From the NCBI GenBank assembly GCA_934229625.1, contig CAKQDU010000001.1, positions 83,078 through 147,077 of the forward strand: 64,000 nucleotides of DNA. Reading direction: 5' to 3'. Each line of letters begins with the position of its first letter. Position 1 is the stretch's first letter. Below, in pieces: positions 9,761 to 59,745 of this stretch. Source of the stretch: an uncultured Alphaproteobacteria bacterium (lineage in GTDB: Bacteria; Pseudomonadota; Alphaproteobacteria; RF32; CAG-239). The position numbers and the translations under genes are program-made. A model generated the notes under the pieces. It did no database searches and had not been told where the DNA came from. It saw only the letters and a list, made by a program, of their open reading frames with translations.

Positions 9761-10396
9761 TCAAAATTCTAATGATATATTACAATACGCGTTGGAGCTT
9801 TCACAAATTTTACAAGCCTCGTGAATTTCTTCCAATGAGGCTTGGGCAACGCATTTTATTTTCTCGTTGCAATAACTATCGCCATAAAACCATATACTTC
9901 TTCCGGTACCCCAAGCTGATGTTCTAACCGCAAAAACGACAGAGTGTAAAGGTTGTCCGAGATTTTGAAAAATAGAAACACATAGTTTGCTTGAAAAAGC
10001 CGGTGAAAAAAAGGTATCTTTTTTTGAAACTCCTCCGATGTAAAAATTTATTACTAATCTGTTATTGCGAGAAAATATATCAATCAAATTATTTTGACCA
10101 TCTTTTAAACTTTTCCAACCTTCATCATTGATAATCCAAGTTTGCGGTACTAAATTTGCAGCTTGTACATAATCATAAACAGGAACCATAGTATTATCGG
10201 AACTGAGATATTTAAGGTCATTAAGGTGTTCAAGCAATCCATAAATTAAGTAACTGTATTCTTCAATGAGTTTATTGCTTTTATATTTTTCCATGGCTTT
10301 GGAGTAACCGGCAATCCCACCGACGCTTAGTACAGCGATTATAGCAAGTACGCCGAGCATTTCTATCATGGAACGGCCTATTTGATTATATTTCAT
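9761..10396 (-). CDS. type IVb-like prepilin paralog P1 (short leader MKYNQIG, then RSMIEMLGVLAII...)
   Basis: Class III signal peptide with Glu at +5 and hydrophobic alpha1 helix. Conserved EYSYLIYGLLEHL. C-terminal FYGDxxC...CxxC...C motif. RBS AAGGAAG. Confidence 0.7.
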   Translation of the reverse strand: MKYNQIGRSMIEMLGVLAIIAVLSVGGIAGYSKAMEKYKSNKLIEEYSYLIYGLLEHLNDLKYLSSDNTMVPVYDYVQAANLVPQTWIINDEGWKSLKDGQNNLIDIFSRNNRLVINFYIGGVSKKDTFFSPAFSSKLCVSIFQNLGQPLHSVVFAVRTSAWGTGRSIWFYGDSYCNEKIKCVAQASLEEIHEACKICESSNAYCNISLEF

Positions 10397-10742
10397 AATA
10401 ACTTCCTTTCACATTGAAATTACAACAAAAAAGCCGCCGATAAGGCAGCTGGAAGTTCGTAACTACTTACTGTAAAATAGTGTAGCATATTAGCTAAAAG
10501 ATAACATATTTTGCTACCTTCCAGCCGTTAAAGCTAGAAAATTTAACGTCCTAAAGACGTACAGTAATGAGGCTACGACACCCCAGACAGACTATTGCCT
10601 ATCCAAAAGTCATTTTAACGAAATATTACATAAAAGTAAAGATGTTTTTCTTATTACAGCACATTGTTTTAGTAGTTGACTTATGGCGTAAGGCTGGTAT
10701 AGAATAAATGCTGTAATTAAACTAATTTAAGAGGAAAGAAAG

Positions 10743-10799
10743 ATGAAAAATAAGCTAAGCAAAGGTCTCTCTCTCTCTCTGCAAATCCTGAACATCTGA
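10743..10799 (+). CDS. 18-codon mini-ORF containing a (TC)7 tract, strong RBS
   Basis: AAGAGGAAAG SD 8 nt upstream of ATG. (TC)7T at 10766-10780 inside the ORF. Coding status uncertain. Confidence 0.2.
   Translation: MKNKLSKGLSLSLQILNI
10766..10780. repeat. (TC)7 dinucleotide microsatellite
   Basis: tctctctctctctct read directly from sequence. Confidence 0.9.
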
Positions 10800-11009
10800 T
10801 TAAAGGCGCTTTTTCTGCCGTTCAGCACGTTTTTACAGGGTTTGGCAGAAAAATTGATACTTTCGGAAATAACACATTAAAAAATAAAATAACAGGCGGC
10901 ACGTTTCCGCGCTTTTCCACCTCCACTTGCAACGTCATTCTTCGCCGGTACTCCCTGCCGGAAGTACCATGGCGGAGAATCCATAATGTCATTGCGTATG
11001 CAATGGCAA

Positions 11010-11568
11010 GTTGCTGGATAACAAAGGCAAGTTCTTTAACATTGCCGCTAAAGATATTCCAAGCGGCCGCGGTTTTGGTCAGCCGGTGCGCCTGATGATA
11101 GATTTGGCAAACAATGACGATGTTGTGGCAATGTTTGTATATGAGGCTGGAACAAGCTATTTGATTGCTTCGGACAAAGGCTATGGCTTTATTGTTGATG
11201 AAAATCATTTACTGGCGCAAACTCGTAACGGGCGTAAAATTATGAATGTCGCCGATGATGAAAATATGAAATTTTGCTTGCCGATGACCGGAGATTATGT
11301 GGCTGTTGTTGGTGAAAATCGTCGTTTACTGGTGTTTAAAGCCGAGGAAATCCCAACTATGGCGCGCGGTCACGGTGTGTTGCTGCAAAAGTATAAGGAC
11401 GGCAATATATCGGATATTCAAATTTTCAAAGGCGAGGACGGTTTCAGCTATAACCGCGCCGGCGGAGTCAGTACCGAAAAAGAGCTTATTGGTTGGTTGG
11501 GACACCGCGCGCAGATTGGAAAAGTTGTTCCATTCGGATTTCCTAAAACAAACAAATTTTTCAAATAA
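11010..11568 (+). pseudogene. duplicated 3' fragment of parC (C-terminal 185 codons, no own start)
   Basis: 11010-11462 is identical to parC 9103-9555. The last ~100 bp carry mostly synonymous divergence. No ribosome-binding site or native start. Confidence 0.75.
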
Positions 11569-11577
11569 AATAAAAAA

Positions 11578-11612
11578 GTCTGCATTCTGTGCGCAGATTT
11601 TTTTTAAATTAT
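11578..11612 (+). terminator. candidate intrinsic terminator after the parC fragment
   Basis: gtctgc...gcagat hairpin followed by TTTTTTTT. Confidence 0.4.
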
Positions 11613-11625
11613 AATAAATCTGTGC

Positions 11626-12153
11626 TTGACAAAAATTAACAATATAGCTACTCTGACACATACAGAATGTATTATTAACTTTATATTTTTATTTATGGGA
11701 CAGTTATCTAAATTTGCGACGCCTATGCCTTTGGTATATGCTCATGGCAACAATCTTTTGATTGTTTCGGAATTGGATTTGTCAAATAAGGACAGTCTGA
11801 TTGGTATTAAACTGGACAGATTTACCTTGTCTTTAACGCAGGACAGGGTTTCTTGGTATAACGCCTATTGGATGATTGAGCAGAATTGCTTGCTGCACAA
11901 AACTCCGCGTTTGCCTGATGAAACAGACTGCTACGATATGATGCGCAATGTCGATAGAATCAATGCTACATTGCAAATTATCAAAGAACAGGGGATAAAG
12001 GCCGATTTGCTTGATGTAAATGGTATTTATTGGCTTCGTAATGAGTTTTCTCATATTAAATCATTTGCCTATATGATGAGAGAGAGACTTAAAACTTTGC
12101 GCGACAAGTTTGATGAAGATTCTTGTCTGGCAAGAGTGATTTGGTACAACTGA
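11626..12153 (+). CDS. hypothetical protein (true start possibly 11695 or 11722)
   Basis: 175-aa ORF divergent from the Y-family polymerase gene. No recognisable domain. Confidence 0.35.
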   Translation: MTKINNIATLTHTECIINFIFLFMGQLSKFATPMPLVYAHGNNLLIVSELDLSNKDSLIGIKLDRFTLSLTQDRVSWYNAYWMIEQNCLLHKTPRLPDETDCYDMMRNVDRINATLQIIKEQGIKADLLDVNGIYWLRNEFSHIKSFAYMMRERLKTLRDKFDEDSCLARVIWYN

Positions 12154-12161
12154 TTTTTCAA

Positions 12162-12200
12162 AAACTTTCGGTATATTCAAATACCGGAAGTTTTTTTGTA
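12162..12200. terminator. bidirectional hairpin terminator between convergent genes
   Basis: cttccggtat...ataccggaag perfect stem flanked by A-run and T-run. Confidence 0.6.
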
Positions 12201-12224
12201 GACAATCATAAAATGTTATTTTTA

Positions 12225-13376
12225 TCAAAATAACCCGTTTTTAACTATGTCTTTGCCAAATTTTTGTTCCAATTCATCTAAAACCTTGCTTATTTTATCA
12301 TCGTGATATTCCGGTTCGGCAAATAAAAACGGTTGAAAATCGGAACGGCTGAGCAGATGTTCCAGCATTACGCCGCTGCTGCGATATAAAACATTCGGAA
12401 GATATATTTTAGGCAACAGGCTTTGCGCCGCATTAAACAATTCTTGCTCTCCGTTGCAGGGTTGCGGTAATTTGGCATAAGTGCTGTAGACCTGAAAATC
12501 TTTGGTTCTTAACATAATTCCTACGACATTGCAAAAACAATCTTCTTCACGCATTTTACGTCCGGCGCAATGAACATGATGTTTTATAGAAGCGCGCAAG
12601 ACAGCCATATCAGAAGTGAATTTACTTAAAAAAGAAGTGCTTTGAATAGATTTCGGCAGACTTTTTAGAGTTTTAATTTTGTTTACGGCGTATCCTTGTA
12701 ATTCATATTTAAGATTCAGGCCATTTATACCCAAATTTTTACGTATCCAGCTATCATTTTGTTTTATAAATTCCAAACAGTTGAAAATTCCGTATATTTT
12801 CATTTTAGCTGTATTTTTCTGTCCAAAACCGCACACATCTTCAAGCGAAGTTTTTTCTAAAACAGATAATAGAGACGCCTGATTGATTAAGTAAACACCG
12901 CCGTTGTTTTTAGCTTTATCACTAGCCAGCTTAGCCAATAGTTTTGAACTGCTAACCCCGACAGAAACCGGAATTTTGCATTTATTCCAAACAGTTTGCC
13001 GTATATCTGTTGCCAGTTCGGTAAAATCTTTTTTATACAGTTTATCCAAGCCTTGCAGATTTAAATAAGCTTCATCTATAGAACAAACCTCTACATCGGG
13101 TGTAAATTCTCTTAAACAATTCATAACTTTCGCGGAGTATTCTTCATAACGTGAATGCCGTCCTTTCAGATAAATTGCGGATGGAAATTTTTTTTTAGCC
13201 ATAAAATATGGTTCGCCCATTTTTATTCCCAAAGTTTTAGCTTCTCTTGAACGAGAAACTACACAGCCGTTTCCGCCTGATATAACGCATAATGCTTTAC
13301 CTTGTAAATCGGGATTATCAGCCTGTTCGCAAGAAACAAAAAAACTATCGCAGTCCACTAATGCAATTTTTGACAT
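12225..13376 (-). CDS. Y-family DNA polymerase (UmuC/DinB-like)
   Basis: 383 aa. IALVDCDSFFVSCE, GNGCVVSRSREAK..GIKMGEPYF and SIDEAYLNL catalytic-core motifs. The N-terminus resembles UmuC more than DinB. Confidence 0.8.
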   Translation of the reverse strand: MSKIALVDCDSFFVSCEQADNPDLQGKALCVISGGNGCVVSRSREAKTLGIKMGEPYFMAKKKFPSAIYLKGRHSRYEEYSAKVMNCLREFTPDVEVCSIDEAYLNLQGLDKLYKKDFTELATDIRQTVWNKCKIPVSVGVSSSKLLAKLASDKAKNNGGVYLINQASLLSVLEKTSLEDVCGFGQKNTAKMKIYGIFNCLEFIKQNDSWIRKNLGINGLNLKYELQGYAVNKIKTLKSLPKSIQSTSFLSKFTSDMAVLRASIKHHVHCAGRKMREEDCFCNVVGIMLRTKDFQVYSTYAKLPQPCNGEQELFNAAQSLLPKIYLPNVLYRSSGVMLEHLLSRSDFQPFLFAEPEYHDDKISKVLDELEQKFGKDIVKNGLF

Positions 13377-13502
13377 GTTACACCTATGTTCTAATTTTGT
13401 TCTATAATAAACAGAATATAGCGGATGTCAAGTTTTGTTTTATTTTTGTATAAATATTCATTAAATATATCAATAAATCAATAAGCTATTGTGTGTCAAA
13501 AA

Positions 13503-13680
13503 GTGTGTAAAAAAAACGACCGTTTAAAATGGACAGTTTTTAGGCTGTTTTTTATAGTCTAGCAAAGGTTGCCGGAATTTGCAATAACTTTTTATATTTG
13601 CGATGTTTTTTGTGGTTTTGTAAGAATTATCAGCGTCTTATTCTGAGTGTGTAAAAATAACGGTCGTTTTTTTTACACAA
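13503..13680 (+). repeat. 178-bp conserved upstream element bounded by 22-bp inverted repeats (gtgtgtaaaaaaaacgaccgtt / aacggtcgttttttttacacaa); second copy reverse-complemented at 59746-59923
   Basis: Direct comparison of the two loci gives about 99% identity. The right end also forms a perfect hairpin just upstream of the RBS. Confidence 0.8.
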
Positions 13681-13695
13681 TTGAGGAGGAATAAG

Positions 13696-14424
13696 ATGTT
13701 TGATGGTATAGAATTTTTCAAAGGAAAGAGCAGAGGTGAGGGTTCTGGAGTGCTTTGCGTTGCTCGCAATGACGTTTGCTCTGCCGGTCGGTCAATGATA
13801 GAAATGCTCGGCGTATTGGCAATTGTCGGCGTGTTAAGCGTTGGCGGCATCGCCGGCTACTCCAAAGCGATGGAAAAGTTTAAGCTTAGTAAGGCTCTGG
13901 ATGAATACAGCTATCTTATTTATGGGTTGCTGGAACACTTAGATGAAATTAAATATTCCACTAAATCAGGAGATGGAAATGCTACTCCTGTTGTGGAATT
14001 AGCTAACAATTTGAATTTGGTTCCTCCGACATGGACAATGATAGCAAACAATCTTGATGTTCGTCATAAAAATTTATTTGAAGACCCATATAACAATCTT
14101 TTATCTATTTACTCAAAAGACGGAAATTTGCGTTTTGATTTTATTTTAGGCGGTTCGCAATTTCCGGACGAAGGCTCTTGGATAACTGAAAATTTTTCAA
14201 CCAAATTCTGTATGGAATTGGTAAACAATGTTGTCAAACCATTGCATTCTTCTTTGGAATTTTTATTTTTTTACAGGTCAAAAGGAAGCTCATCCACTTT
14301 TTATGGTGATAAAAAGTGTTCTTCCGGCCGCAAATGTTTGAGTGATATCAGTATAAAAGAAGTGTATGATAATTGCAAACGTTGCTCAAAAAAAGAAGTT
14401 TGTTCCGTAACTATAGACTTTTAA
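13696..14424 (+). CDS. type IVb-like prepilin paralog P2 with 31-aa leader
   Basis: Strong SD GAGGAGGA before the ATG at 13696. Leader ends ...CSAG then RSMIEMLGVLAIVGVLSVGG. Conserved EYSYLIYGLLEHL and the C-terminal 5-Cys motif ending TIDF. Confidence 0.7.
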   Translation: MFDGIEFFKGKSRGEGSGVLCVARNDVCSAGRSMIEMLGVLAIVGVLSVGGIAGYSKAMEKFKLSKALDEYSYLIYGLLEHLDEIKYSTKSGDGNATPVVELANNLNLVPPTWTMIANNLDVRHKNLFEDPYNNLLSIYSKDGNLRFDFILGGSQFPDEGSWITENFSTKFCMELVNNVVKPLHSSLEFLFFYRSKGSSSTFYGDKKCSSGRKCLSDISIKEVYDNCKRCSKKEVCSVTIDF

Positions 14425-14465
14425 ATTGTATATATTAAATTTTTTTCAAAAAAATGTCTTATACA

Positions 14466-14494
14466 CTTGCATAGGCAAAAATCGCTCCCTATAT
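14466..14494 (+). promoter_or_regulatory. sigma-32-like heat-shock promoter upstream of dnaK
   Basis: CTTGCAT - 14 nt - CCCTATAT resembles CTTGAAA-N13-15-CCCCATNT. Positioned 35 nt upstream of the dnaK RBS. Confidence 0.45.
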
Positions 14495-14529
14495 ACATTT
14501 TTAGAAATGAAAAAGGAGGATTTAAAATT

Positions 14530-16446: not shown

Positions 16447-16468
16447 CGTTGCTTTGTTAAAGAAAATA

Positions 16469-21443: not shown

Positions 21444-23243
21444 TTGTATATGTATAAGTTTTTGATTTTTTTGAGTGCTTTATGGTGGTGCAACGCGGCA
21501 ATGGCGGCGGAAATTCCGGCGTATGACGAGGCGTGGCTTAAATTGTTGCATTATCATAAAACGCTCGGCGGCTATCGTGGTTTGGTAGAAAATCAGGATT
21601 TTTATATAAGTCCGGACGGACGGGAAAATCCCATTGCAGAATTTGAGGCGGAAATTAAGGCTTTTGCTGATGGAGCAGAAAAGTGCCGTTTTCCGGCAAG
21701 ATTCAATTATTTGAAACAGTTGGGAAAAGTGCAGGGTGATTTAAAAAATTGCAATGATTATCAGCAATTTATGCAAGATGTGCGTCCGAATGGTATTACT
21801 ATTTTGTTTACCAATGCTTATATGAGTAATCCGGCTTCGTTGTTCGGTCATACGCTGGTGCGTATAGATACGGCGCGCAAAGGGACGCAAATGTTAGCGC
21901 ACGGTTCAAATTTTGGGGCGGATTCCGGAACAGAACACGGTGTTATGTTCGCACTCAAAGGCTTATTCGGCGGATATCTTGGAGTATATAGCGTCAGTCC
22001 GTATTGGGAAATAATAAATACCTACAATAATATCGAAAATAGAGATATTTGGGAATATAATCTTAATTTAACAGATGAAGAAAAACAAAAGTTTGTCGAC
22101 CATCTTTACGAAATGCGGCAAGCCAAAATCCGCTACTATTTTTTAAGTAAAAACTGCTCGTATCTGATTTTGGAATTACTGGAGGCGGTGCGCCCGAGTT
22201 TGGAGCTGACCAGACAATATCCGGCGTGGGTAATTCCGTTGGATACGCTCAAAACAATCAATAACGAGCCGAATTTGGTTAAGTCACAAAACTATCGTCC
22301 GGCGCGCTATACGCAAATTCAAAATTTGATAAAAGCAATGAATAAGCAACAATATGCCGCATTTTTGCGCGGTATAAAAGAATATGATTTTACGGCGGAA
22401 AATTTATCAGATGAGGAAAAATCAGCTGTTTATGAGGCGATTTATCAATATTTTCAATATGAATACACCGCTGGAAATATGCCGCTGAAAGAATATCGAA
22501 AGGCTAGTTTCGGCGTGTTGCGCAAACGCAGCGCTTTGCCGATTGGGGAAAAAGTTCAGCCAGTTGGTGAAAATCCGGCGTTGTCGCACGATTCTATGCA
22601 AATATCATTCAGCGGCGGGGCGGAACGCCATAAAAGCTTTGAAGAAGTGGAAATCCGTCCGGCTTATACGGCGTTGACAGATAGCAGTTTCGGATTGGTT
22701 AAAGGGGCGGAAATCAGCGTGATGTCCAGCAAATGGCGCTATTATAACCAATCTCACAAAACTGTTTTGCAAAATTTTGCGCCGATAAAAATTAAATCCT
22801 TAGTGCCGGCGGGCAGGGTGTTTGACCCGATTTCTTATGCCATCGGTGCGGAAATTAAACGCGATTATAATCCGCAGAATTATGATGAAGGTTATGTCGG
22901 TTACGGCTATGGCGGAGTAGGTAAAACCATTGCGTTTCCGGCAAATATTTGGCTTTATGGTTTGCTGAAAGTTAACGGTGCGTACGGCGGTTTTATTCCG
23001 CACAACAGCTGGGGCGGATTGGCGCCGGAAATTGGAATTTTAAAAGATTTTGGCGCGGTGCGGCTGCATTTTAACGCCGAAAAAACATGGGCTACCCGTA
23101 AATTCGGCGACAGGCTGATTTATAAAGCTGCCGCTTCGCTAGGTATAACGGATAATTTATCGCTGGAAATCGGCTATGAGGGAAGTCACAATATTGGCCG
23201 CAACAGCGAAAGCTGGCAGCTTTGGCTGCAAAAAAGCTTCTGA
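21444..23243 (+). CDS. DUF4105 (Lnb N-terminal domain) protein with C-terminal beta-rich domain
   Basis: 599 aa, signal peptide. AWLKLLHYHKT...YISPDGRENP...CRFPARFNYL pattern typical of DUF4105. Confidence 0.5.
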   Translation: MYMYKFLIFLSALWWCNAAMAAEIPAYDEAWLKLLHYHKTLGGYRGLVENQDFYISPDGRENPIAEFEAEIKAFADGAEKCRFPARFNYLKQLGKVQGDLKNCNDYQQFMQDVRPNGITILFTNAYMSNPASLFGHTLVRIDTARKGTQMLAHGSNFGADSGTEHGVMFALKGLFGGYLGVYSVSPYWEIINTYNNIENRDIWEYNLNLTDEEKQKFVDHLYEMRQAKIRYYFLSKNCSYLILELLEAVRPSLELTRQYPAWVIPLDTLKTINNEPNLVKSQNYRPARYTQIQNLIKAMNKQQYAAFLRGIKEYDFTAENLSDEEKSAVYEAIYQYFQYEYTAGNMPLKEYRKASFGVLRKRSALPIGEKVQPVGENPALSHDSMQISFSGGAERHKSFEEVEIRPAYTALTDSSFGLVKGAEISVMSSKWRYYNQSHKTVLQNFAPIKIKSLVPAGRVFDPISYAIGAEIKRDYNPQNYDEGYVGYGYGGVGKTIAFPANIWLYGLLKVNGAYGGFIPHNSWGGLAPEIGILKDFGAVRLHFNAEKTWATRKFGDRLIYKAAASLGITDNLSLEIGYEGSHNIGRNSESWQLWLQKSF

Positions 23244-23249
23244 AATTTC

Positions 23250-23310
23250 TTGACAAAAATTACAAAATAGGATAAATAAAAGACATAATTTTATTTTTAT
23301 GTGTAACTTA
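23250..23310 (+). promoter_or_regulatory. conserved promoter-leader cassette (TTGACA-N17-TAAATA; leader CATAATTTTATTTTTATGT)
   Basis: Sequence identity with the cassettes at 879, 25299 and 26600. Confidence 0.55.
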
Positions 23311-23323
23311 AATTATTTGGCTT

Positions 23324-23794
23324 ATGAATTTTTATCGTAATTTTATGGCTAAGCATGAGGAAAAAATTTCCGGCTTTGAAGTTCTTTTAATGCTTGTTAT
23401 TACCGCATTTTTAGGAGAAATGTTTATTTTTTCCTTGTCTGTGGCGGATAGAACATCTAGCTTGGTTCTTTTTGTGATGCTTGTTTTAAGCTTGGCGTCT
23501 GTTCATTACTTTTGGGTGTTTTTGGCAGACTATAAACAGTTTGGCAAGGATATTGATGAGGCCTGTAAGCAAGCAGAAAAGAAATGGGGCGAGGCTAAGA
23601 AAAAATTTGAAAAAGAAAAGGATGCTGAATTTAGGATTGCATTTAGAAAAATTAAGCTGGATGTGGTTAAGTTTTGTATCTGTTTTCTGCCCGTAGGTTT
23701 GCTCGGGTATAAAGTTGACTGGTTGCCGATTTTTCATAATGTAAATGAATGGCTGAATGTACTGAGCAATATCTTTGTTGGAATTTTAAACTAA
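23324..23794 (+). CDS. small membrane protein, family A copy 1
   Basis: 156 aa. Paralog of 26673-27155, collinear similarity (VLFVMLVLSLASVHYFWVFLADYKQFGK... versus VLFAMLILGLLSIYWFSVFLADNKKFAK...). Confidence 0.5.
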   Translation: MNFYRNFMAKHEEKISGFEVLLMLVITAFLGEMFIFSLSVADRTSSLVLFVMLVLSLASVHYFWVFLADYKQFGKDIDEACKQAEKKWGEAKKKFEKEKDAEFRIAFRKIKLDVVKFCICFLPVGLLGYKVDWLPIFHNVNEWLNVLSNIFVGILN

Positions 23795-23799
23795 ATTTA

Positions 23800-23838
23800 A
23801 AAACTGCGGAGATATAACAATTTCCGCGTTTTTTTATT
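23800..23838 (+). terminator. intrinsic terminator
   Basis: gcggagatataacaatttccgc hairpin plus TTTTTTT. Confidence 0.6.
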
Positions 23839-23845
23839 TTAAAAC

Positions 23846-23910
23846 TTGACAAAATATCAAAATATCTTAGAGTAACTGACATAGTTTTATTTTTATGTAT
23901 AATTTAAATT
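23846..23910 (+). promoter_or_regulatory. variant promoter-leader cassette (TTGACA ... TTTTATTTTTATGT)
   Basis: Shares the -35 element and leader core with the other cassettes. Confidence 0.45.
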
Positions 23911-23918
23911 ATTAAGGT

Positions 23919-24362
23919 ATGAAAAATGTTTTATATGTTTTATTTGTTGGATGGCTTATATATTTAGGCATTCCTATGCTGTTTGTCACAAAATTTGGCA
24001 TTATAGCATTGTTTATTTTTTCTTTTTGTCTTTCGATGTTTATCGTTAGGCTAATTAAAAATAATGAAAAGTACGAGCTGTATTCGGATATTTATGATAA
24101 AATAGAAGCTGCTCGAACTGATTGTATAGATTCAGAAACAAAGATTAAGGAAATTTTGGACGAATATAATCTTAATATTGACGCATTTAAAATTGTCGGT
24201 TTGGAAATATTGAACAGAAAGTCGGAGGCGCGTACTGCTTCTGTAGATAATGAACATGCGATTCTATATACTTTGTTACTTGGGTCGTTATTTGTATTTC
24301 CGGCTATGATTGATGAGCCTTTTACGATTATAAATAAATTTTGGGAATCTGTGATATTTTAG
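23919..24362 (+). CDS. small membrane protein, family B copy 1
   Basis: 147 aa. Paralog of 26099-26545 (shared EKYELYSDIYDK / EKYELYSEVYDK and NLDI motifs). Confidence 0.5.
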   Translation: MKNVLYVLFVGWLIYLGIPMLFVTKFGIIALFIFSFCLSMFIVRLIKNNEKYELYSDIYDKIEAARTDCIDSETKIKEILDEYNLNIDAFKIVGLEILNRKSEARTASVDNEHAILYTLLLGSLFVFPAMIDEPFTIINKFWESVIF

Positions 24363-24480
24363 AACAGAGTGATAAAAAACGTGAAAGCGATAAAGTTTTT
24401 GCCGTTTTTATATATAAATCCATGCAGAAAAGAGAGATTTATCAGTTTGGCTGAAAAATCTCTTTTTTTGTGCAATTATC

Positions 24481-24557
24481 TTGACAAAAAAACAAAGATA
24501 TGTTTAATATAAAATGAATTTTGTATATTTATGTTTAATTTTTAATTCTTTTTTATT
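24481..24557 (+). promoter_or_regulatory. promoter TTGACA-N18-TAATAT plus type-2 leader (TATGTTTAATTTTTAATTCTTTTTTATTATG)
   Basis: The last 36 nt are identical to 25349-25384. Confidence 0.5.
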
Positions 24558-25199
24558 ATGATTGTAAATATTAATGCAAGTGCTGATAGTCCTGTTTATT
24601 TTGAGCTGAACGAAGCTGATGAAATTGTTATCGTCGGTGACAAAAAGGATGAGCTACTACGTTATTATATGGGTAAAAGTTTAAATGGACCTGAAATAAA
24701 ACATCCAACAAGACCGAAATTGTGTGTTGATGACTGTAAGGATTGGCATATTATCGTTACATTTAGATGCACTCAGAATGTTATGGTTAATGGTCTAGTT
24801 GCCGAGTTAACTAATGATATTGTAGTTCATGGTTTAGTTGCTGAGGTAATTAAGGAGTGTTTAAAAAAAGGTTCTTCATTTGATTACAAAGATGAAAATT
24901 TGCATTTTGTGGATGAACAAATACAGTTAAAAAGTAAGGTTGATATTCTTGAAAGATGTGTTAGACGTCTCGCAAAAATGCAAAATAAGGTTAATACTAT
25001 AGAAGGTCATATTGCTGGTTTTGCGCAAATGCAAAATAGAATTAACACACTTGAAAACTGTGTGAAACGTCTTGCGCAAATGCTTAATAAGGTTAATACT
25101 AACAGACGCTCTATTGCAGGTAATATTGATATTCTTGCACGTAAACTCAAGGATATTGAAGATGACCGTAATCACGCATACGATGATTGGCAGAGTTAA
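24558..25199 (+). CDS. coiled-coil protein with two ~35-aa C-terminal repeats
   Basis: 213 aa. Repeats ERCVRRLAKMQNKVNTIEGHIAGFAQMQNRINTL / ENCVKRLAQMLNKVNTNRRSIAGNIDILARKLKDI. Confidence 0.45.
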   Translation: MIVNINASADSPVYFELNEADEIVIVGDKKDELLRYYMGKSLNGPEIKHPTRPKLCVDDCKDWHIIVTFRCTQNVMVNGLVAELTNDIVVHGLVAEVIKECLKKGSSFDYKDENLHFVDEQIQLKSKVDILERCVRRLAKMQNKVNTIEGHIAGFAQMQNRINTLENCVKRLAQMLNKVNTNRRSIAGNIDILARKLKDIEDDRNHAYDDWQS

Positions 25200-25254
25200 A
25201 TTTGATAATGAGCCTTATTATAACTAATAGCTTTTTACCATGTATTTATCTAAA

Positions 25255-25289
25255 TTCAAAGAAACTGTGAAGTCATTATGATTTCACAG
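25255..25289 (+). terminator. intrinsic terminator (ctgtgaagtcat / atgatttcacag plus T8); identical copy at 26555-26588
   Basis: Near-perfect 12-bp stem with one mismatch, then TTTTTTTT. Confidence 0.7.
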
Positions 25290-25298
25290 TTTTTTTTG

Positions 25299-25384
25299 TT
25301 TAAAATGATTGACAAAAATTAAAAGCATCGCTAAACTAAATACATAATTTTATATTTATGTTTAATTTTTAATTCTTTTTTATT
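25299..25384 (+). promoter_or_regulatory. conserved promoter-leader cassette (TTGACA-N17-TAAACT) fused to type-2 leader
   Basis: About 110 bp including the upstream terminator is near-identical to 26550-26660. Confidence 0.6.
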
Positions 25385-25966
25385 ATGAGTGCAGAATTTT
25401 GGAATTATGTTACAAATCATCATTTGGATGTTTTTGTATTTGTTGCAATGTGTGTAATGTTTTTTTCATGTCTGCTGTTAACAATTTTATTTTTTGTTTT
25501 TAAACAAAATTATAAATGCAAGCAGCAGGAAACGGAAGGTAAACTTCTTGAGGCAGAGCGCAAGCAGCAAGAAGCGGAAAGCAAACTTCTTGAGGCAGAA
25601 CGCAAGCAGCAAGAAATCAACCAGCAGTTTCAACAAGCCAGGAAAAAACTTTTTGAGTCTGAAAAACTTCGCTTTAGCATGGTCGGAATTCCCGGAGATG
25701 AATATTGGAAAAGCGCCATTTCTAAATACGAAATATTTAGAACGTATGACGATTTTAACGATGAAAGCAAAATGAAGCGCCAAGCTATCGCTCTCCAAAT
25801 TTTTAAAATGCCGAACAAAGAGTTTACAAAGGCTGAATTGTACAAACAATTTAAGCAGTTGTATAAGGACTATATTGGCATTTTGCCTGGTTATGATGTC
25901 ATGAAGCCTGCCAAAGAATATATATTGAAATCTATTTATACCGAATTGTACTTTAGTGTAAGTTAA
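25385..25966 (+). CDS. membrane-anchored coiled-coil protein with tandem KLLEAERKQQE repeats
   Basis: 193 aa. N-terminal TM helix. 42-bp tandem DNA repeat at 25541-25615. Confidence 0.5.
   Translation: MSAEFWNYVTNHHLDVFVFVAMCVMFFSCLLLTILFFVFKQNYKCKQQETEGKLLEAERKQQEAESKLLEAERKQQEINQQFQQARKKLFESEKLRFSMVGIPGDEYWKSAISKYEIFRTYDDFNDESKMKRQAIALQIFKMPNKEFTKAELYKQFKQLYKDYIGILPGYDVMKPAKEYILKSIYTELYFSVS
25541..25615 (+). repeat. about 1.8 copies of a 42-bp in-frame tandem repeat
   Basis: aaacttcttgaggcagagcgcaagcagcaagaagcggaaagc repeated with one substitution. Confidence 0.8.
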
Positions 25967-26098
25967 TACATTACTTAATAGATATTACCCCGAATTTACA
26001 GGTGAATATCTATAGAAAAGCCAACTTTCAGGCTTTTTCTTATTGCTGCAATACGTTATATTGATTTTCAATAGTTCTCATTTTAAATTATTAAGCGC

Positions 26099-26545
26099 AT
26101 GAAAAAGTATGTATATGTTTTTGGTATCTTATGGTTAATAGCTATAGGTGTACCATTATTATTTAATCCAACCATTGCTTTAGGAGTTGTGTTTTTTCTA
26201 TCGTGCATCGGCGTTCCATTTTGGGCATCAGAATTTGAAAAAATTGAAAAATATGAGCTTTATTCTGAAGTGTATGATAAGTTATATGCTATTAAGGAAG
26301 AAAATTTTGATGTATATTATAAGACTCAAAAAATTTTAGCTTCATATAATCTTGATATTTGGACTAAGAATGCTTTAAATATCGTTAAATCTAAAAGAGA
26401 TGCTGCTTTTGAGGAGTGTCAGGAAAATTATGTAACTTTTAGATTTTCGCCTATAGTTATAATAATATGGTTTATGTTACCATTGTTTGGAAATGAGGCT
26501 CCTTTTGAAGTGGTTTGGGGATTTTGGAAGACAATGATACTTTAA
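26099..26545 (+). CDS. small membrane protein, family B copy 2
   Basis: 148 aa paralog of 23919-24362. Confidence 0.5.
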   Translation: MKKYVYVFGILWLIAIGVPLLFNPTIALGVVFFLSCIGVPFWASEFEKIEKYELYSEVYDKLYAIKEENFDVYYKTQKILASYNLDIWTKNALNIVKSKRDAAFEECQENYVTFRFSPIVIIIWFMLPLFGNEAPFEVVWGFWKTMIL

Positions 26546-26554
26546 TGATAAAAA

Positions 26555-26588
26555 AACTGTGAAGTCATTATGATTTCACAGTTTTTTT
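26555..26588 (+). terminator. intrinsic terminator, copy of 25255-25289
   Basis: Identical hairpin plus T-run. Confidence 0.7.
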
Positions 26589-26599
26589 GTTTAAAATGA

Positions 26600-26672
26600 T
26601 TGACAAAAATTAAAAATATTACTAAACTAAACGCATAATTTTATTTTTATGTTTTACTCAAATTATTAGCTT
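26600..26672 (+). promoter_or_regulatory. conserved promoter-leader cassette (TTGACA 26600-26605, N17, TAAACT 26623-26628)
   Basis: Identical core to the cassettes at 879 and 25299. Confidence 0.6.
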
Positions 26673-27155
26673 ATGATTTTGAATGAGATTAACAACTATG
26701 AGGAAAAAATTGCAAAAGAAGAAAAATACTCTGAATTTGCGTTTTTTGTAGGTGTGATTTATGTAATGTTTTTTGGCTTTGCATTTATTCATTCCCTGTC
26801 TTCAGCGGATAAAACTTCAAGTTTTGTTTTATTTGCAATGCTGATTTTAGGACTGTTGTCTATCTATTGGTTTTCAGTATTTTTGGCGGATAATAAGAAA
26901 TTTGCTAAAGAAGTATTTAAAGCTTGGAGACAAAGTGAAAAAATGTGGGGAGATGCTAAAGAAAAGTTTGACAAAGAAAAAAATGCCGAATTTGAAATTA
27001 TGAGTAAAAAAGTTAAGGGCAATATTGTTAAATTTGGAATTTTCTTTTTCTCTACTGCCTTGTTGAGTTTAAAAGTTGATTGGCTGACTGTTTTCCATAA
27101 TATGGCAGAATGGCTGCATAATTTAGGAGCTATCTTTGTTGGAATTTTCAGCTAG
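26673..27155 (+). CDS. small membrane protein, family A copy 2
   Basis: 160 aa paralog of 23324-23794. Confidence 0.5.
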   Translation: MILNEINNYEEKIAKEEKYSEFAFFVGVIYVMFFGFAFIHSLSSADKTSSFVLFAMLILGLLSIYWFSVFLADNKKFAKEVFKAWRQSEKMWGDAKEKFDKEKNAEFEIMSKKVKGNIVKFGIFFFSTALLSLKVDWLTVFHNMAEWLHNLGAIFVGIFS

Positions 27156-37267: not shown

Positions 37268-37448
37268 GGGCGTCAGAAACCCTTTATACATACAGTCGTT
37301 GAGCATAATACGACTTAAAATTTGTTATGCCGATTTTCTGTTCGCTGGACGGATGTCGGCTAAATAAGGTTTCGGCCAAATAAGCCGAGCCGTTTGTATG
37401 TATACGGTTTCTGAACATCCGCCCGCTTTGCAGCGGGTTTTATTTTTT
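37268..37448 (+). ncRNA. candidate terminator/antiterminator leader RNA upstream of pilin P3
   Basis: Imperfect 28/35-nt inverted repeat (37268-37295 versus 37390-37424). Its 3' arm overlaps the hairpin cccgctttgcagcggg plus U-run (37420-37448), which ends 25 nt before the RBS. Confidence 0.4.
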
Positions 37449-37471
37449 GTGTTTTTAGGAGGTTTGGAAAT

Positions 37472-38119
37472 ATGAATAAAAATGTTAAAAACAGGCAGTG
37501 CAGCGGTCGCTCAATGATAGAAATGCTGGGGGTACTATCTATCATCGGCGTGCTGAGTGTCGGCGGTATTGCCGGTTATTCCAAAGCTATGCTGAATTAT
37601 AAATTAAATAAATCTGTCGAAGCACATCGCGATGTTATATTTGGTCTAGTTCATTATAAAGATAGGCTAAAACCGGCAGAAGGTCAGAATTTAATCAATG
37701 AAGAAGTGGCATCTTTAGGACTTAAACCTAATAATTGGCGCAAAGATGGTGTTTATCTGATTGATGATATGAATAACACGATATTTATTGGTATTTATGG
37801 CGATGATAAACATATAGGATATGAAATCAGAATGCCTGCCAGAACGATTTCTCATAATGCAGATGGAAAAGTAGTGCAAAGCTATCCTTATAATTTTTGC
37901 GTGACAGCTATTAAACAACTGATTATTCCGTTGTCGGAAATGATTGAGGAATTTTCTTTTTATAGAACTAAAAGCGGTTGGGATTCTTTTTATGGCAGTA
38001 AATTTTGTGGTAAAGATTGCAAATGCATAAGTCAAATAAATGTTTCTCAGATGTTCGCCGAATGCCAGACTTGCGGTAAATCTGACGGTGAAGGTTGTTC
38101 AATTATCTTAAAATTTTAA
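37472..38119 (+). CDS. type IVb-like prepilin paralog P3 (12-aa leader)
   Basis: MNKNVKNRQCSG then RSMIEMLGVLSIIGVLSVGGIAGYSKAM. C-terminal FYGSKFCGKDCKC...CQTCGKSDGEGCSIILKF. RBS AGGAGG. Confidence 0.65.
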   Translation: MNKNVKNRQCSGRSMIEMLGVLSIIGVLSVGGIAGYSKAMLNYKLNKSVEAHRDVIFGLVHYKDRLKPAEGQNLINEEVASLGLKPNNWRKDGVYLIDDMNNTIFIGIYGDDKHIGYEIRMPARTISHNADGKVVQSYPYNFCVTAIKQLIIPLSEMIEEFSFYRTKSGWDSFYGSKFCGKDCKCISQINVSQMFAECQTCGKSDGEGCSIILKF

Positions 38120-54339: not shown

Positions 54340-54340
54340 C

Positions 54341-55063
54341 TTATTTAAATTCAAAACTTACGTCGCAGTCGGTATTTTTCTTGTCACAGGAAGCGCAAAC
54401 TTCCTGAAAATCTTTTAATGTAGCCGTAGGTAAACATTTTTCTCCGTCTTGACAATACTTTGCTCCATAAAAATATATGTTATGCGACCCCTGCCACGAC
54501 CTTGCCAAATAAATTTCAGAGGACAAAGGCATAGCTATATTCTTAAACAACTCCAAACAAAAATCTTCTGCAAATCCTTCTGTAGTGGTTACATTATCAG
54601 CACTTTTAGTAAAACCGCCGATTTTTATGCTTACTGAAACAGCGCCTTTTCTAGTATATGGATAAACAATATTACCGAAAGTGTCATAAAAGGTATTGGT
54701 TGATTTTGTATAACTATCTGGTAACAACCCCAACGCATAAACGGTGTCTGCCAATGGTATTTGCCTAACCTGTTCATCTGATTTTAAGCTATCCAAATGC
54801 TCCAGAAGTCCGGCAAAAAACATAGAGTATTCTCCGATTGTCTTGTTCATTTTCCACATTCTCATTGCTTTGCTATAGCCTGCAATACCGGCAACGGACA
54901 GAACACCGACAATCGCCAGCACGCCGAGCATTTCTATCATACTCCGCCCAGCTGAAACCGCGTATAGCTGCGCTTCTAAAGCAGTTTTACGCTGTCTCAA
55001 AAAATTTATGTATTCCCCATATACACTAGGATTTTTTGTATTTTCTTTTAATTTATCAGACAT
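54341..55063 (-). CDS. type IVb-like prepilin paralog P4 (39-aa leader)
   Basis: AGGAG SD before the Met at 55063. ...AVSAG then RSMIEMLGVLAIVGVLSVAGIAGYSKAM. C-terminal FYGAKYCQDGEKC...CASCDKKNTDCDVSFEFK. Confidence 0.65.
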   Translation of the reverse strand: MSDKLKENTKNPSVYGEYINFLRQRKTALEAQLYAVSAGRSMIEMLGVLAIVGVLSVAGIAGYSKAMRMWKMNKTIGEYSMFFAGLLEHLDSLKSDEQVRQIPLADTVYALGLLPDSYTKSTNTFYDTFGNIVYPYTRKGAVSVSIKIGGFTKSADNVTTTEGFAEDFCLELFKNIAMPLSSEIYLARSWQGSHNIYFYGAKYCQDGEKCLPTATLKDFQEVCASCDKKNTDCDVSFEFK

Positions 55064-55407
55064 ATATTGAACTCCTAAAAAATTACAGAAAAACCGCTTA
55101 AAATAAGCGGTCGGAGAGTTCAACAATCATATCTGCTTAAATGATTCTTTTAGCCTTTAAAGCCATATTGTGTCAGAGATATATTATACAGCTTTTGAAC
55201 ATACGCTAAAAGCTCCCCGACCATATTGCTATGTATCGGGGATATATTTAGCTATCGGCAATAATCAAACCGCCGATAATTTAACGATGTTATATCCTAA
55301 CACCGAAGCAGATAAGAGCCGTTGAAAGCTCCGCGCTAACCGCGCTTGTTTTAATATATAAAGAAATAAAATAAAAAGCAAACAAATTCTTATGGGATAA
55401 AATTTTA

Positions 55408-56937: not shown

Positions 56938-56986
56938 GGCGGCATCTCCTGTTGTTGCATTTATGGCTTATAATATCACAGTCCGC

Positions 56987-58249
56987 TTAAAAACGCAAAT
57001 ACTTCTCTACAATATCATAGCTAGGATAGTCATGCAGATTGCCCAAAAGCGTATAAGTCGGCTTACTGGCAAACAAACGCCTCGCCACACGCTGAATATC
57101 ATCTTTATTGATAGCGTTGATTTTTTCCACAATTTCTTCAACCGGAATCACGCGGTTATACAAAAGATGCTGACGGGCGATAACTTCGGCTGTGGAAGAA
57201 GAACTTTCCAAAGCCATCAGCATACTTGCCTTGAGCTGAACTTTCACCCGTTCCAATTCTTTGTCGGTCACATATTCATTAACAACTTTTTTCAGCTCAT
57301 CAGCCACCACCGGAACATATTGCTTGATTTCTTCTTCATTCAAACCGGCGTAAATACCAAACATACCGCTGCCGGTGTGTGCGTTGGCAAAGCTGTATAC
57401 CGTATAAACCAAACCGCGCTTTTCTCTAATTTCTTGGAACAAACGCGAAGACATGCTGCCGCCCAGCAAGGTTGAAAGCACAGTTACCGGATAATAGTCC
57501 GCATCGTTATACGGCACTCCCTCAAAGCCAAGCAAAACCTGAGCTTGTTCAATATCACGGGTTTTGATAGATGAACCTCCGGTATAATGCTGCGCGTCTT
57601 TAACATAGTCTGTTTTTTCACGCAAACCAGACATACGGTCCTCCACCATTTTAACAAATTCATCATGGTTCAAATTACCGACAGCGGCAACCACCATATT
57701 TTCGGCGGCGTAGTTGTGTTTCATATAATCATGCAGCTTATCGGCATTAAATGAGCGGACTTTTTCCGCCGGACCAAGAATACTGCGCCCCAAAGCCTGA
57801 TTAGCAAAGGCTGTTTCTTGAAAATAGTCATAAACAATATCGCTTGGGTCATCGTTAGTCTGTTTGATTTCCTGCACCACGACTTCTTTTTCTTTTGCCA
57901 GTTCGGCAGCGTCAAAAGTCGGCGCCATAATCAAATCCGACAACACGTCAGCAGCCAATTCTACGTCATTTTTCAGCATTTTAGCATAAAAAGCCGTAAA
58001 TTCGCGCGAAGTATAAGCATTGGTTTGACCGCCAACATTTTCGATATCTTCGGAAATTTGCAAAGAGTTACGTTTTTTTGTACCTTTAAACACGGTATGT
58101 TCAACAAAATGCGAAATTCCGTTTCTTTCCAGCGTTTCGCAAGCGCTTCCAGTGTTTACCCAAATACCCAAAGAAACAGTTTCAGTCTGCGGACGTTCAA
58201 CAGAGGCAACTCGCAAACCGTTTTTTAACGTTGTTAATTTAACTTCCAT
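56987..58249 (-). CDS. M16-family zinc metallopeptidase (pitrilysin/MPP-like)
   Basis: HFVEHTVFKGT inverted zincin motif, 420 aa. Confidence 0.85.
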   Translation of the reverse strand: MEVKLTTLKNGLRVASVERPQTETVSLGIWVNTGSACETLERNGISHFVEHTVFKGTKKRNSLQISEDIENVGGQTNAYTSREFTAFYAKMLKNDVELAADVLSDLIMAPTFDAAELAKEKEVVVQEIKQTNDDPSDIVYDYFQETAFANQALGRSILGPAEKVRSFNADKLHDYMKHNYAAENMVVAAVGNLNHDEFVKMVEDRMSGLREKTDYVKDAQHYTGGSSIKTRDIEQAQVLLGFEGVPYNDADYYPVTVLSTLLGGSMSSRLFQEIREKRGLVYTVYSFANAHTGSGMFGIYAGLNEEEIKQYVPVVADELKKVVNEYVTDKELERVKVQLKASMLMALESSSSTAEVIARQHLLYNRVIPVEEIVEKINAINKDDIQRVARRLFASKPTYTLLGNLHDYPSYDIVEKYLRF

Positions 58250-58342
58250 AAAAAATCTTGCCTTATTCTAAAAAATTACATATGACAGTATTATATTGTC
58301 TGATTAGGATAAATCAACATAAAACTTATAAGGGGGTATATA

Positions 58343-59020
58343 ATGGGGAAAAAATTACATTTTGCCGTTGTGCTTTCAGGCTGTGGCCGTGCTGATGGCT
58401 CGGAAATTCACGAAGCGGTCTGTGCCTTGCTTTGCATAGAGAATATGGGTTGCACCTATCAATGCTTTGCGCCGGATATTGACCAAGCGGCGGTGGTTAA
58501 TCATCTAAACAACCAAGCGATGAATGAAAAACGCAATGTTTTGGTGGAATCTGCTCGCATTGCCCGCGGCAATATTTTAGATTTAAAGGCATTTAACACC
58601 AAAGATTTTGACGCCATTATCTTCCCCGGCGGACTCGGCGCTGTCACCAACTGGTGCGATTTTGCCGGACGCGGGGTTTCCTGCAATATCAACACCAGCG
58701 TAAAGCAGGTTATCCGCAAATGCTGGGAAGACAAAGTCGTTATCGGCGCAATGTGCATCGCTCCGGTTTTGATTGCTTTGGTTTTGGCCGACAAACACGT
58801 TAAATTCACGCTCGGCGCCGGCGGCGATACCGCCCAAAAGCTGGAAGAACTCGGCGCGATTCACGAAGAAGTAGGCGTTTCCGATGTTTGTGTAGACCGC
58901 GAAAATCTGGTTTGCAGCACTCCGGCATATATGCTTGCTACAAATATGCTTGACGTTTGTCAAGGCGCGCAAAATATGGTCGGGGCAATCTGTCAGCTTT
59001 TAGAAGAGCAAAGAAACTGA
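58343..59020 (+). CDS. elbB: DJ-1/PfpI-family ElbB-like protein (glyoxalase / isoprenoid biosynthesis protein)
   Basis: MGKKLHFAVVLSGCGRADGSEIHE N-terminus and IIFPGGLGA are typical of ElbB. Confidence 0.75.
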   Translation: MGKKLHFAVVLSGCGRADGSEIHEAVCALLCIENMGCTYQCFAPDIDQAAVVNHLNNQAMNEKRNVLVESARIARGNILDLKAFNTKDFDAIIFPGGLGAVTNWCDFAGRGVSCNINTSVKQVIRKCWEDKVVIGAMCIAPVLIALVLADKHVKFTLGAGGDTAQKLEELGAIHEEVGVSDVCVDRENLVCSTPAYMLATNMLDVCQGAQNMVGAICQLLEEQRN

Positions 59021-59025
59021 CATAA

Positions 59026-59730
59026 TCACAACGGAAAACGGATAGTTATACAGCATACTCCTGAAGCATCGCAATGTTCACAGGCCGATTTTATTTGAGC
59101 CAAAGTAGCATTGCTTAAACACATACGCCCGTTTGAGCAATAAGCATCGCCATAAAATGTTATATCGCCTTTAGTTGAATTAAAAGTGTTTATTGAATAA
59201 ACAGCGGAATGCAGTGGCGTCATAATATTGTTAAACATCTCAACGCAAAGCTTCGATGAAAAGTTTGCGGATATCTTGCTGTCTGCGGTTTCTTGCCAGC
59301 CGCCTAAATAAAAATCCAGAAGCAAAACATTGCCGCCGCTATAAGACTGCACAATATTGCCGCTGTTATCCCACATTGCCTTATTATCTTCGGCTGTCCA
59401 GCTGGACGGAACAATATTTGTGGCGCGGGCAAAGTCTGTGAAATTAAATTTTCCCATACCGACCGGAACACTTTTTAAATCATCTATATGCTCCAGCAGA
59501 CCATATATAAGATAGCTATATTCGCTGATAGTTTTATTAAGTTTGAACTTTTCCATCGCTTTGGAGTAGCCGGCAATGCCTCCGACCGAAAGAACTCCGA
59601 CAATAGCAAGCACGCCCAGCATTTCTATCATTGACCGACCGGCTGAACAAATGTCATTGCGAGCAACGCGAAGCAATCCAGAACCCTCGCCCCTGCTCTG
59701 TTCTCTTAAAAATTCTATACTCTTAAACAT
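59026..59730 (-). CDS. type IVb-like prepilin paralog P5 (31-aa leader)
   Basis: GAGGAGGA SD before the Met at 59730. Leader and first ~85 residues nearly identical to P2. C-terminal FYGDAYCSNGRMC...CEHCDASGVCCITIRFPL. Confidence 0.7.
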   Translation of the reverse strand: MFKSIEFLREQSRGEGSGLLRVARNDICSAGRSMIEMLGVLAIVGVLSVGGIAGYSKAMEKFKLNKTISEYSYLIYGLLEHIDDLKSVPVGMGKFNFTDFARATNIVPSSWTAEDNKAMWDNSGNIVQSYSGGNVLLLDFYLGGWQETADSKISANFSSKLCVEMFNNIMTPLHSAVYSINTFNSTKGDITFYGDAYCSNGRMCLSNATLAQIKSACEHCDASGVCCITIRFPL

Positions 59731-59745
59731 CTTGTTCCTCCTCAA

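Follow-up and report, generated by a model that had tools for sequence, protein, structure and literature searches.

Type IVb pili are mainly known from enteric pathogens, for which they are colonisation factors, and from plasmids, which use them as mating pili, and they are normally built from one major pilin. Pilin variation is known from other systems, the pilE/pilS genes of Neisseria and the tfpQ/tfpI genes of Moraxella, and tens of scattered prepilin-type genes per genome occur in Planctomycetes and Verrucomicrobia (DUF1559) and in Elusimicrobium. Surveys place type IVb pili mostly in Gammaproteobacteria (PMC6668835). The current work is an analysis of five prepilin-like genes, designated P1 to P5, in a stretch of 64,000 nucleotides from an uncultured Alphaproteobacteria bacterium (assembly GCA_934229625.1, contig CAKQDU010000001.1, positions 83,078 to 147,077); this whole stretch, with a G+C content of 38%, is called the window below. 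The five genes are real, under selection and pilin-like, with a type IVb fold. They probably encode pilin precursors of the type IVb class, members of a lineage-specific family that was expanded to dozens of scattered copies and provides alternative subunits for one pilus.

The described proteins most similar to the products of these genes are major pilins of type IVb pili: TcpA of V. cholerae, CofA and LngA of enterotoxigenic E. coli, BfpA of enteropathogenic E. coli, and PilS of S. typhi and of plasmid R64. Gly at position -1, Glu at +5 and a residue other than Phe at +1 are common to all of them and to the gut family. The likeness extends to long leaders (in three of the five copies), a mature part of about 200 aa, a predicted fold that is closest to CofA and TcpA, a cysteine-stabilised C-terminal region and the gut-dwelling organisms themselves. 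The gut family differs in having Arg at +1, leaders of 7 to about 90 aa, and six conserved cysteines where type IVb major pilins have one disulfide pair. It is also encoded outside the assembly operon and by dozens of full-length paralogs per genome rather than by one major pilin gene, and its head domain is recognised by no family model. The five window genes are the following:

9761-10396, minus strand: prepilin-like gene P1, 211 aa, with a 7-aa leader MKYNQIG up to Gly -1, then RSMIEML
13696-14424, plus strand: prepilin-like gene P2, 242 aa, with a 31-aa leader MFDGIEFFKGKSRG..CSAG
37472-38119, plus strand: prepilin-like gene P3, 215 aa, with a 12-aa leader; the most diverged of the five
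54341-55063, minus strand: prepilin-like gene P4, 240 aa, with a 39-aa leader ending in ..NFLRQRKTALEAQLYAVSAG
59026-59730, minus strand: prepilin-like gene P5, 234 aa, with a 31-aa leader

A six-frame scan for the GRSMIEML-type motif found exactly five motif-bearing open reading frames (ORFs) in the window. Their ATG starts coincide with gene calls on public contigs. An identical gene call was found for P2, the exact P5 protein is present on 17 public gut-metagenome contigs, and the P4-type leader recurs in other metagenome-assembled genomes (MAGs). Each start is preceded by a strong Shine-Dalgarno (SD) sequence: GAGGAGG (P2, P5), AGGAGG (P3), TAGGAG (P4) or AAGGAAG (P1). The neighbours of the five genes are housekeeping genes (parC, Y-family polymerase, dnaK, TPR, ABC transporter, dnaG, rnhA and gltX).

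The mature parts of the five proteins consist of 201-211 aa, and the overall identity between the proteins is 35-50%. In contrast to this divergence, the block GRSMIEMLGVL.I..VLSV.GIAGYSKAM is invariant in their alignment, including Gly -1, Arg +1 and Glu +5. When 117 genes of related loci are added to the five, the Gly followed by RSMIEMLGVLAI(I/V)(G/A)VLSVGGIAGY is still invariant. A class III signal is described as a leader that ends with Gly or Ala and precedes a segment of 20-25 residues, most of them hydrophobic, in which position +5 is often Glu (PMC10191384). The family has just this arrangement, with Gly -1, Glu +5 and a stretch of hydrophobic character, about 21 residues long, invariant in the 117 genes. 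Within the first 32 mature codons of P1-P5 the protein identity is 81-100%, whereas the identity at third codon positions is only 41-62%, which shows that the block is kept by selection on the protein. Thus the N-terminal conservation is due neither to chance nor to recent gene conversion. Beyond the N-terminus, the motif EYSYLIYGLLEH is found in four of the five copies and is diverged in P3. The conserved cysteines number six, one in a mid-protein helix (C139 of P1) and five near the C-terminus; four of them occur without exception in 60 homologs, and the other two in at least 90% of these.

A previous reading of the window by a model that saw only the letters and the ORF translations (below, the sequence-only reading) described most of these features correctly. 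It had placed the five ORFs where the scan finds them, each inserted singly among unrelated housekeeping genes, and had recognised a class III signal with Glu at +5 and no Phe at +1. The (E/Y)xxEYS..GLLEH-type motif, said to be present in four copies and diverged in P3, is EYSYLIYGLLEH; the leaders of 31-39 aa with strong SDs that it ascribed to three copies are those of P2, P4 and P5 (31, 39 and 31 aa). It had counted five conserved cysteines, all in a C-terminal motif, and so missed the mid-protein one; the spacing pattern that it gave for the C-terminus is approximate, P1 having L where F or I was written.

The fold was assessed with an AlphaFold model of P1 built on 60 homologs (pLDDT 86.9, pTM 0.79). 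In the model residues 10-55 form a helix, after which comes an alpha/beta head, i.e., the lollipop shape of pilins, with a long N-terminal helix on a head containing an antiparallel beta-sheet, and the head is of the TcpA/CofA type rather than of type IVa. Among the matches listed, the nearest structures are the type IVb pilins CofA and TcpA, followed by the minor pilins CofB (5.9) and TcpB (5.7) and then by S. typhi PilS (5.5) and PilM (5.4); the only other pilin recognised among the 60 matches listed is C. difficile PilA1 (4.2). Foldseek gave one meaningful match only, the S. typhi type IVb pilin, with a probability of 0.99. At the sequence level an annotated type IVb major pilin of an E. 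coli plasmid matches some family members with 26-27% identity over about 150 aa (E from 1e-8 to 2e-7 in a small database). Its matches to P1-P5 themselves are weak, and a profile comparison with one E. coli type IVb pilin was also weak (probability 10%, E 0.003). A profile search against PDB sequences returned chance matches to HIV gp41 through the IxxYxxLIYGLLE motif, and these were discarded. The assignment to type IVb thus rests mainly on the predicted fold and on the genomic context.

The context includes an assembly operon elsewhere in the lineage. In the window no pilus assembly genes were found, motif scans included, in agreement with the sequence-only reading; the ORFs at 27.2-34.0 kb, suspected to be an operon for type II secretion or for a pilus, were read as def, nusB, nrdR, murF, a gene for a ferredoxin-like protein and uvrD. 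In one relative, three family genes have a 320-aa ATPase of the T2SSE family (PilT-like) at a distance of 450 bp. Across these MAGs the homologs of this ATPase show 80-100% identity, and in other members of the lineage this short ATPase (about 320 aa) faces a type IVb operon. The operon encodes, in this order, a 544-aa protein of no recognised family, TcpQ, a secretin with a lipobox, PAP_PilO, a 535-aa coiled-coil protein, a 589-aa T2SSE ATPase, T2SSF and a 182-aa protein. All of its recognised domains, as well as the short T2SSE ATPase, here of 321 aa, score above the Pfam cut-offs (TcpQ 59 bits, PAP_PilO 81.6, Secretin 57.5, T2SSE 225.6, T2SSF 81.2). One copy of the operon is on the 514,841-bp contig ERZ4567185 NODE_7, which agrees in length and sample with contig 1 of MAG CAKQUE01, and this contig 1 also bears a family gene. 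Another contig of CAKQUE01 is 96.5% identical to the window over 6 kb. Thus the species of the window, or its sister species, has a type IVb operon. The machinery specific for type IVb pili (TcpQ, a PilO2/BfpC-type protein and a lipoprotein secretin) is therefore found in the same organism as the family. Locus-tag prefixes common to the 544-aa operon protein and to family members were seen in three further MAGs. On ERZ4567185 NODE_7 the operon is divergently adjoined by type IV secretion genes (positions 1-9660 of the sampled locus), namely three paralogs of TrbC/VirB2 together with VirB4/CagE.

The closest described counterparts of this operon are the PilO2-type clusters of plasmids and integrative and conjugative elements, represented by the thin pilus of R64, by PAPI-1 pil2 and by the annotated clusters of E. 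coli NZ_AP022262.1 and of the Bosea plasmid pBSY19_1. Their genes are arranged as in the gut lineage: TcpQ, secretin, PilO2, an unnamed gene, an ATPase, a platform protein and a short second ATPase. The operon PilO-like protein matches the 'type 4b pilus protein PilO2' of Bosea and of E. coli plasmids, as well as BfpC. Over its full length, the short ATPase of the gut lineage has 35% identity with the 318-aa second ATPase of the E. coli cluster. The adjacent type IV secretion genes are a further likeness, in this case to conjugation-linked thin pili of IncI plasmids and integrative and conjugative elements. Unlike the described clusters, the gut operon begins with the gene of the 544-aa protein. 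The E. coli cluster has a major pilin gene before TcpQ, and an A24 peptidase gene after the second ATPase together with a lytic transglycosylase gene, while the gut operon has none of the three; it also lacks the PilV adhesin gene of the Bosea cluster. In the latter cluster the product of the gene after the second ATPase, a protein of 199 aa, was considered as a candidate pilin; it has no relationship to the gut family.

No pilin gene and no other candidate for a major pilin were found in the gut operon. An operon without a pilin gene makes the dispersed family genes its likely subunits, and the combination of a pilin-less machine with dozens of scattered pilins that have an identical assembly helix is the main argument for the mechanism that we propose. 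The precursor would enter the inner membrane via its invariant hydrophobic N-terminal segment. A prepilin peptidase, whose gene was not found in the DNA sampled, would cut after the invariant Gly, so that Arg becomes residue +1 and Glu residue +5. Polymerisation of the subunits via their identical N-terminal helices would then fall to the one type IVb machine that the lineage has, and the variable head, held by the six conserved cysteines, which could form up to three disulfides, would make up the pilus surface. We infer that the family members are fibre subunits and that the repertoire serves surface variation, i.e., it may provide a choice of surfaces that help in adhesion or in evading antibodies and phages. 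The sequence-only reading of a type IVb-like prepilin family thus gains support from the fold, from the mature length of about 200 aa, from the leaders and the non-Phe +1, and from the operon of the related MAG. Its contrast of the family with a classical pilus operon was misleading, since the lineage does have such an operon, only without a pilin gene.

Several observations weigh against this interpretation. The prepilin models stay below their cut-offs in all five proteins, so that the check proposed in the sequence-only reading, a hit to the N-methylation domain, failed formally: Pfam N_methyl (PF07963) gives 10.8-14.2 bits (cut-off 21.2) and TIGR02532 gives 10.9-13.7 bits (cut-off 16.3), both aligned at the correct position. 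Arg at +1 is, to our knowledge, not seen in characterised pilins. The weak points also include the very long leaders: in the family they reach about 90 aa, which is far longer than in known type IVb pilins. In the window itself, the mature length of 201-211 aa and the Arg +1 fit type IVb; three copies have leaders of 31, 31 and 39 aa, and the other two have leaders of 7 and 12 aa. The length of the leader has ceased to be regarded as a discriminating feature of type IVb (PMC10191384). No family gene lies inside the assembly operon, where type IVb pilins are normally encoded (PMC6668835). Finally, a prepilin peptidase gene was found neither in the gut operon nor, as an A24 peptidase, in the window or in 1.36 Mb of related loci (motif search and tblastn with an E. 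coli type IVb peptidase), although the type IVb peptidase can be a loner gene (PMC6668835). The search for assembly genes elsewhere that the sequence-only reading had suggested therefore succeeded for the operon and, in the DNA sampled, not for the peptidase.

These observations partly fit another explanation, according to which the proteins have a pilin fold and form no fibre: they could be minor or tip pilins, parts of a short type II-like periplasmic pseudopilus, or uncleaved signal-anchored periplasmic proteins for which the helix is no more than a membrane anchor. The missing peptidase and the very long, variable leaders, which would be unusual for fibre subunits, agree with it. The NCBI names of family members, mostly 'hypothetical protein', include a few 'GspH family' and 'FimT/FimU', and large pilin-like expansions occur in Planctomycetes (DUF1559) and Elusimicrobia. 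Nevertheless, the structures that match best, over 146-153 residues, are those of major type IVb pilins and not those of GspH or of minor pilins; the first 30 or so mature residues are invariant across paralogs of 35-50% identity, as co-assembly in a fibre core would need; and the operon offers no other candidate for the major pilin. We consider this explanation unlikely. Much less credible still is that the N-terminus is a generic signal-anchor of a non-pilin family. The subthreshold prepilin models and the chance matches of the PDB profile search would be expected in that case, and they are outweighed by the fold, by the match to the annotated type IVb pilin, which reaches beyond the helix, and by the co-occurring operon that lacks a pilin. 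Structure prediction, which the sequence-only reading had proposed for the cysteine-rich C-terminal domain, came out in favour of pilins.

The family of type IVb-class pilins, as we interpret it, is large. A database search yielded more than 7,700 homologs, with a Pfam domain in none of the 120 matches listed, and no Pfam or NCBIfam model covers the remainder of P1-P5 beyond the N-terminus. An exhaustive profile search of 1.84 billion cluster representatives (clusters at 50% identity) gave 472 clusters with E<=1e-30 and 3,554 clusters with E<=1e-10. A scan of one genome per species revealed at least 565 family loci, nearly all of them in human or animal gut MAGs labelled 'Alphaproteobacteria bacterium' and a few in evidently misnamed bins. 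At least 36 distinct family genes are present in 21 loci of MAG CAKQRZ01 (gut Alphaproteobacteria), at least 25 in bin CAVKTH01 and at least 30 in one metagenome sample. Searches of the literature on the family, or on pili of gut Alphaproteobacteria of this group, brought up no relevant work. The bins CAVKTH01, CAVGVF01, CAVIDY01 and CAVEOB01, which carry many family copies, are named Bacteroidaceae, Eubacteriales and [Ruminococcus] gnavus; several loci of the misnamed bins are about 80-98% identical to window genes, and these names are almost certainly wrong.

In the 117 family genes the mature part always starts with RSM after the Gly and has 193-220 aa when complete. The leaders fall into recurrent types, namely MK.NQ.G, MYKNFEKG, MTGGRGANSFG, MFKSIEFFKGKSRG..LLR..RND.CS.G and ..NFLRQRKTALDAPLYAVSAG; other leaders stay open in frame for up to about 90 codons. 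Long leaders are modular: units such as GLLR..RND.CS occur in duplicate or are combined with insertions of about 60 aa, and the reading frame is still open. The upstream regions of family genes also share recurring stretches, e.g., ..SPSRGEGLHRPWCDKILGT...

Each window copy would have its own promoter-proximal cassette. The upstream elements are the following:

10397-10476, minus strand: 5' leader of P1, with anti-SD AACUUCC, a terminator-like hairpin (10450-10432) with a U-run, then SD GGAAGUU
13499-13695, plus strand: upstream cassette of P2; 24-nt inverted repeats 13501-13524 and 13659-13682 flank 134 nt, and the right repeat abuts SD GAGGAGG
37421-37471 (region 37392-37471), plus strand: leader of P3; SD AGGAGG, preceded by a terminator-like hairpin (37421-37438) and its U-run at a distance of 34 nt from the ATG
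55064-55143, minus strand: leader of P4; a terminator-like hairpin 55112-55092 inside a helix that pairs AACUCUCC with the SD region
59731-59927, minus strand: upstream cassette of P5; inverted repeats 59744-59767 and 59902-59925, the same element as the P2 cassette

Upstream of P1, P3 and P4, a terminator-like hairpin and its U-run lie at a distance of 29-36 nt from the ATG, and the predicted folding puts this hairpin within an outer helix that pairs the anti-SD with the SD. The z-score of the fold is -2.6 for the P1 leader and -3.6 for the P4 leader, where none of 200 shuffles folds as well. In 17 homologous P1-type leaders AACUUCC and GGAAGUU are invariant and each of four hairpin pairs shows 5-7 compensatory changes. 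The P3 hairpin and SD are conserved in 11 MYKNFEKG-type leaders from other MAGs. This architecture (anti-SD, covarying hairpin, U-run, SD), which is conserved before the three paralogs and many homologs, matches no Rfam family at the gathering threshold, and the scans of the window found no Rfam families and no tRNAs at all.

The structure of these leaders suggests that in several cassette types a terminator hairpin within the SD-pairing helix would keep copies off by default, to be released singly. Two points weaken this interpretation. The SD pairing probability is 0.80 for the MK.NQ.G type, 0.86 for the MYKNFEKG type, 0.41 for the MFKSIEF type and 0.55 for control ORFs, but these values come from related, non-independent sequences and a crude control set, and their support for SD sequestration is suggestive only. 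In addition, MFKSIEF-type leaders (P2, P5) show no SD pairing of the kind seen in P1, P3 and P4. A full scheme can be formulated, in which a library of dozens of complete major-pilin genes serves one pilin-less machine, the choice among them is made at the RNA level via leader locks, and reshuffling of the chromosome is a side effect. We regard it as a tentative possibility with the odds against it.

The cassettes of P2 and P5 are about 99% identical upstream of the ATG. Their common stretch comprises 455 nt with 89% identity and begins exactly at the 24-nt inverted repeat, and the inverted repeats are 96% complementary. The 134-nt segment of the P2 cassette contains a promoter-like site at 13569-13598, and the repeats may possibly work as an operator pair. 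A third copy of the 15-mer of the inverted repeat forms a local hairpin. Five copies of another promoter-like element, of 75 nt (CTTGACAAAAA .. CATAATTTTATTTTTATGT), are located at 871-945, 23243-23317, 23839-23913, 25302-25376 and 26593-26667; they precede a second paralog set in the window, small membrane-protein genes of about 140-160 aa at 356-781 and 23324-27155.

A cassette bounded by inverted repeats raises the question of whether the genes are cargo of a mobile or selfish element, the 24-nt repeats being transposon-like ends or a phase-variation switch. The exact start of the common P2/P5 stretch at the repeat would fit this, as would the frequent breaks of contigs at these genes and the duplicated parC 3' end that brackets P1. 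An invertible promoter at P2/P5 is not supported: in metagenome contigs the inverted junction occurs in 0 stretches and the observed orientation in 27. The orientation is likewise the same in all related loci with the element and in three sampled contigs that extend across the P5 cassette, and the repeat itself accounts for those contigs whose ends lie inside the element. Moreover, neither a transposase nor a recombinase was seen next to the copies, every occurrence found of the repeat-flanked element came with a pilin gene, and orthologous copies occupy the same sites in different samples. Mobility is thus highly improbable. From the 'mobile or duplicative' family of the sequence-only reading only the second word survives, and it greatly understated the expansion to at least 36 genes in one MAG. 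Taken as a whole, its interpretation of the five genes is partly supported.

The repeated sequences nevertheless have consequences for the chromosome. Three more features are relevant here:

13499-13953, plus strand: left arm of the 455-nt inverted repeat, comprising the P2 cassette and the first 85 or so codons; an inversion breakpoint
59473-59927, minus strand: right arm of the 455-nt inverted repeat, comprising the P5 cassette and the 5' coding part
11010-11568, plus strand: orphan copy of the parC 3' end, a direct repeat with 9103-9661, bracketing P1 and its leader

The two arms are 45.5 kb apart and 89% complementary. Contigs of another sample join window position 59927 to 13953 and position 13499 to 59474, with an overlap that corresponds to the cassette. 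About 8 of the 22 contigs covering the gltX region have the arrangement of the window and about 12 of the 22 have the inverted one. Thus a 45.5-kb inversion has its breakpoints in the P2/P5 cassette, and both arrangements are common in public gut contigs. Around P1, positions 9103-9402 and 11010-11309 are 100% identical (at least 300 nt), and a 185-aa ORF in the orphan copy repeats the C-terminus of ParC; the duplication looks like the scar of a single-crossover insertion or duplication. In more distant MAGs synteny breaks at paralog sites, and the paralogs appear to act as general rearrangement hot spots. The conserved 5' parts would be the substrates of homologous recombination, as observed for P2 and P5. 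In relatives, changes of gene order were noticed exactly at family genes: gltX, pilin and uvrD follow each other in one of them, and rnhA adjoins the ABC gene in another.

Recombination within a shared 5' cassette, together with conserved 5' and variable 3' parts and the breaks of synteny at paralog sites, brings to mind the pilE/pilS genes of Neisseria and the tfpQ/tfpI genes of Moraxella, where there are many pilin variants for one machine and where recombination or inversion takes place in the conserved part. If the analogy were complete, most copies would be silent donor cassettes that recombine into one expression locus. Yet all copies examined are complete ORFs, each having a start codon and an SD of its own, and the aligned recurrent leader types have a conserved upstream cassette, while silent cassettes of Neisseria lack the 5' part and the promoter. 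The synonymous divergence of the N-terminal block speaks against frequent gene conversion as well. We therefore judge donor cassettes to be very unlikely. In comparison with Neisseria and Moraxella, the gut copies are all complete and each is equipped for expression; the 45.5-kb inversion switches no coding segment onto a single promoter, and no site-specific recombinase was seen. The expansions in Planctomycetes, Verrucomicrobia and Elusimicrobium resemble the gut family in the number of genes (tens per genome), in the prepilin-type N-terminus and in their scattering over the chromosome. They differ in the head domain and the clade, the gut lineage having the type IVb major-pilin fold and a matching operon without a pilin gene.

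In abundant uncultured Alphaproteobacteria of the human and animal gut the pilin thus appears to have been separated from its machine and multiplied to dozens of divergent copies. If these are indeed alternative subunits of a fibre, this would be a new route to surface variation in a commensal, with a bearing on escape from immunoglobulin A and phages and on adhesion to niches, and it would also explain the poor assembly of these genomes and their rearrangement at family genes. The conserved leader structures constitute a directly testable regulatory hypothesis. If the choice among copies is made at the RNA level, antigenic or adhesive variation would be achieved through gated expression of a multigene family and not through DNA rearrangement.

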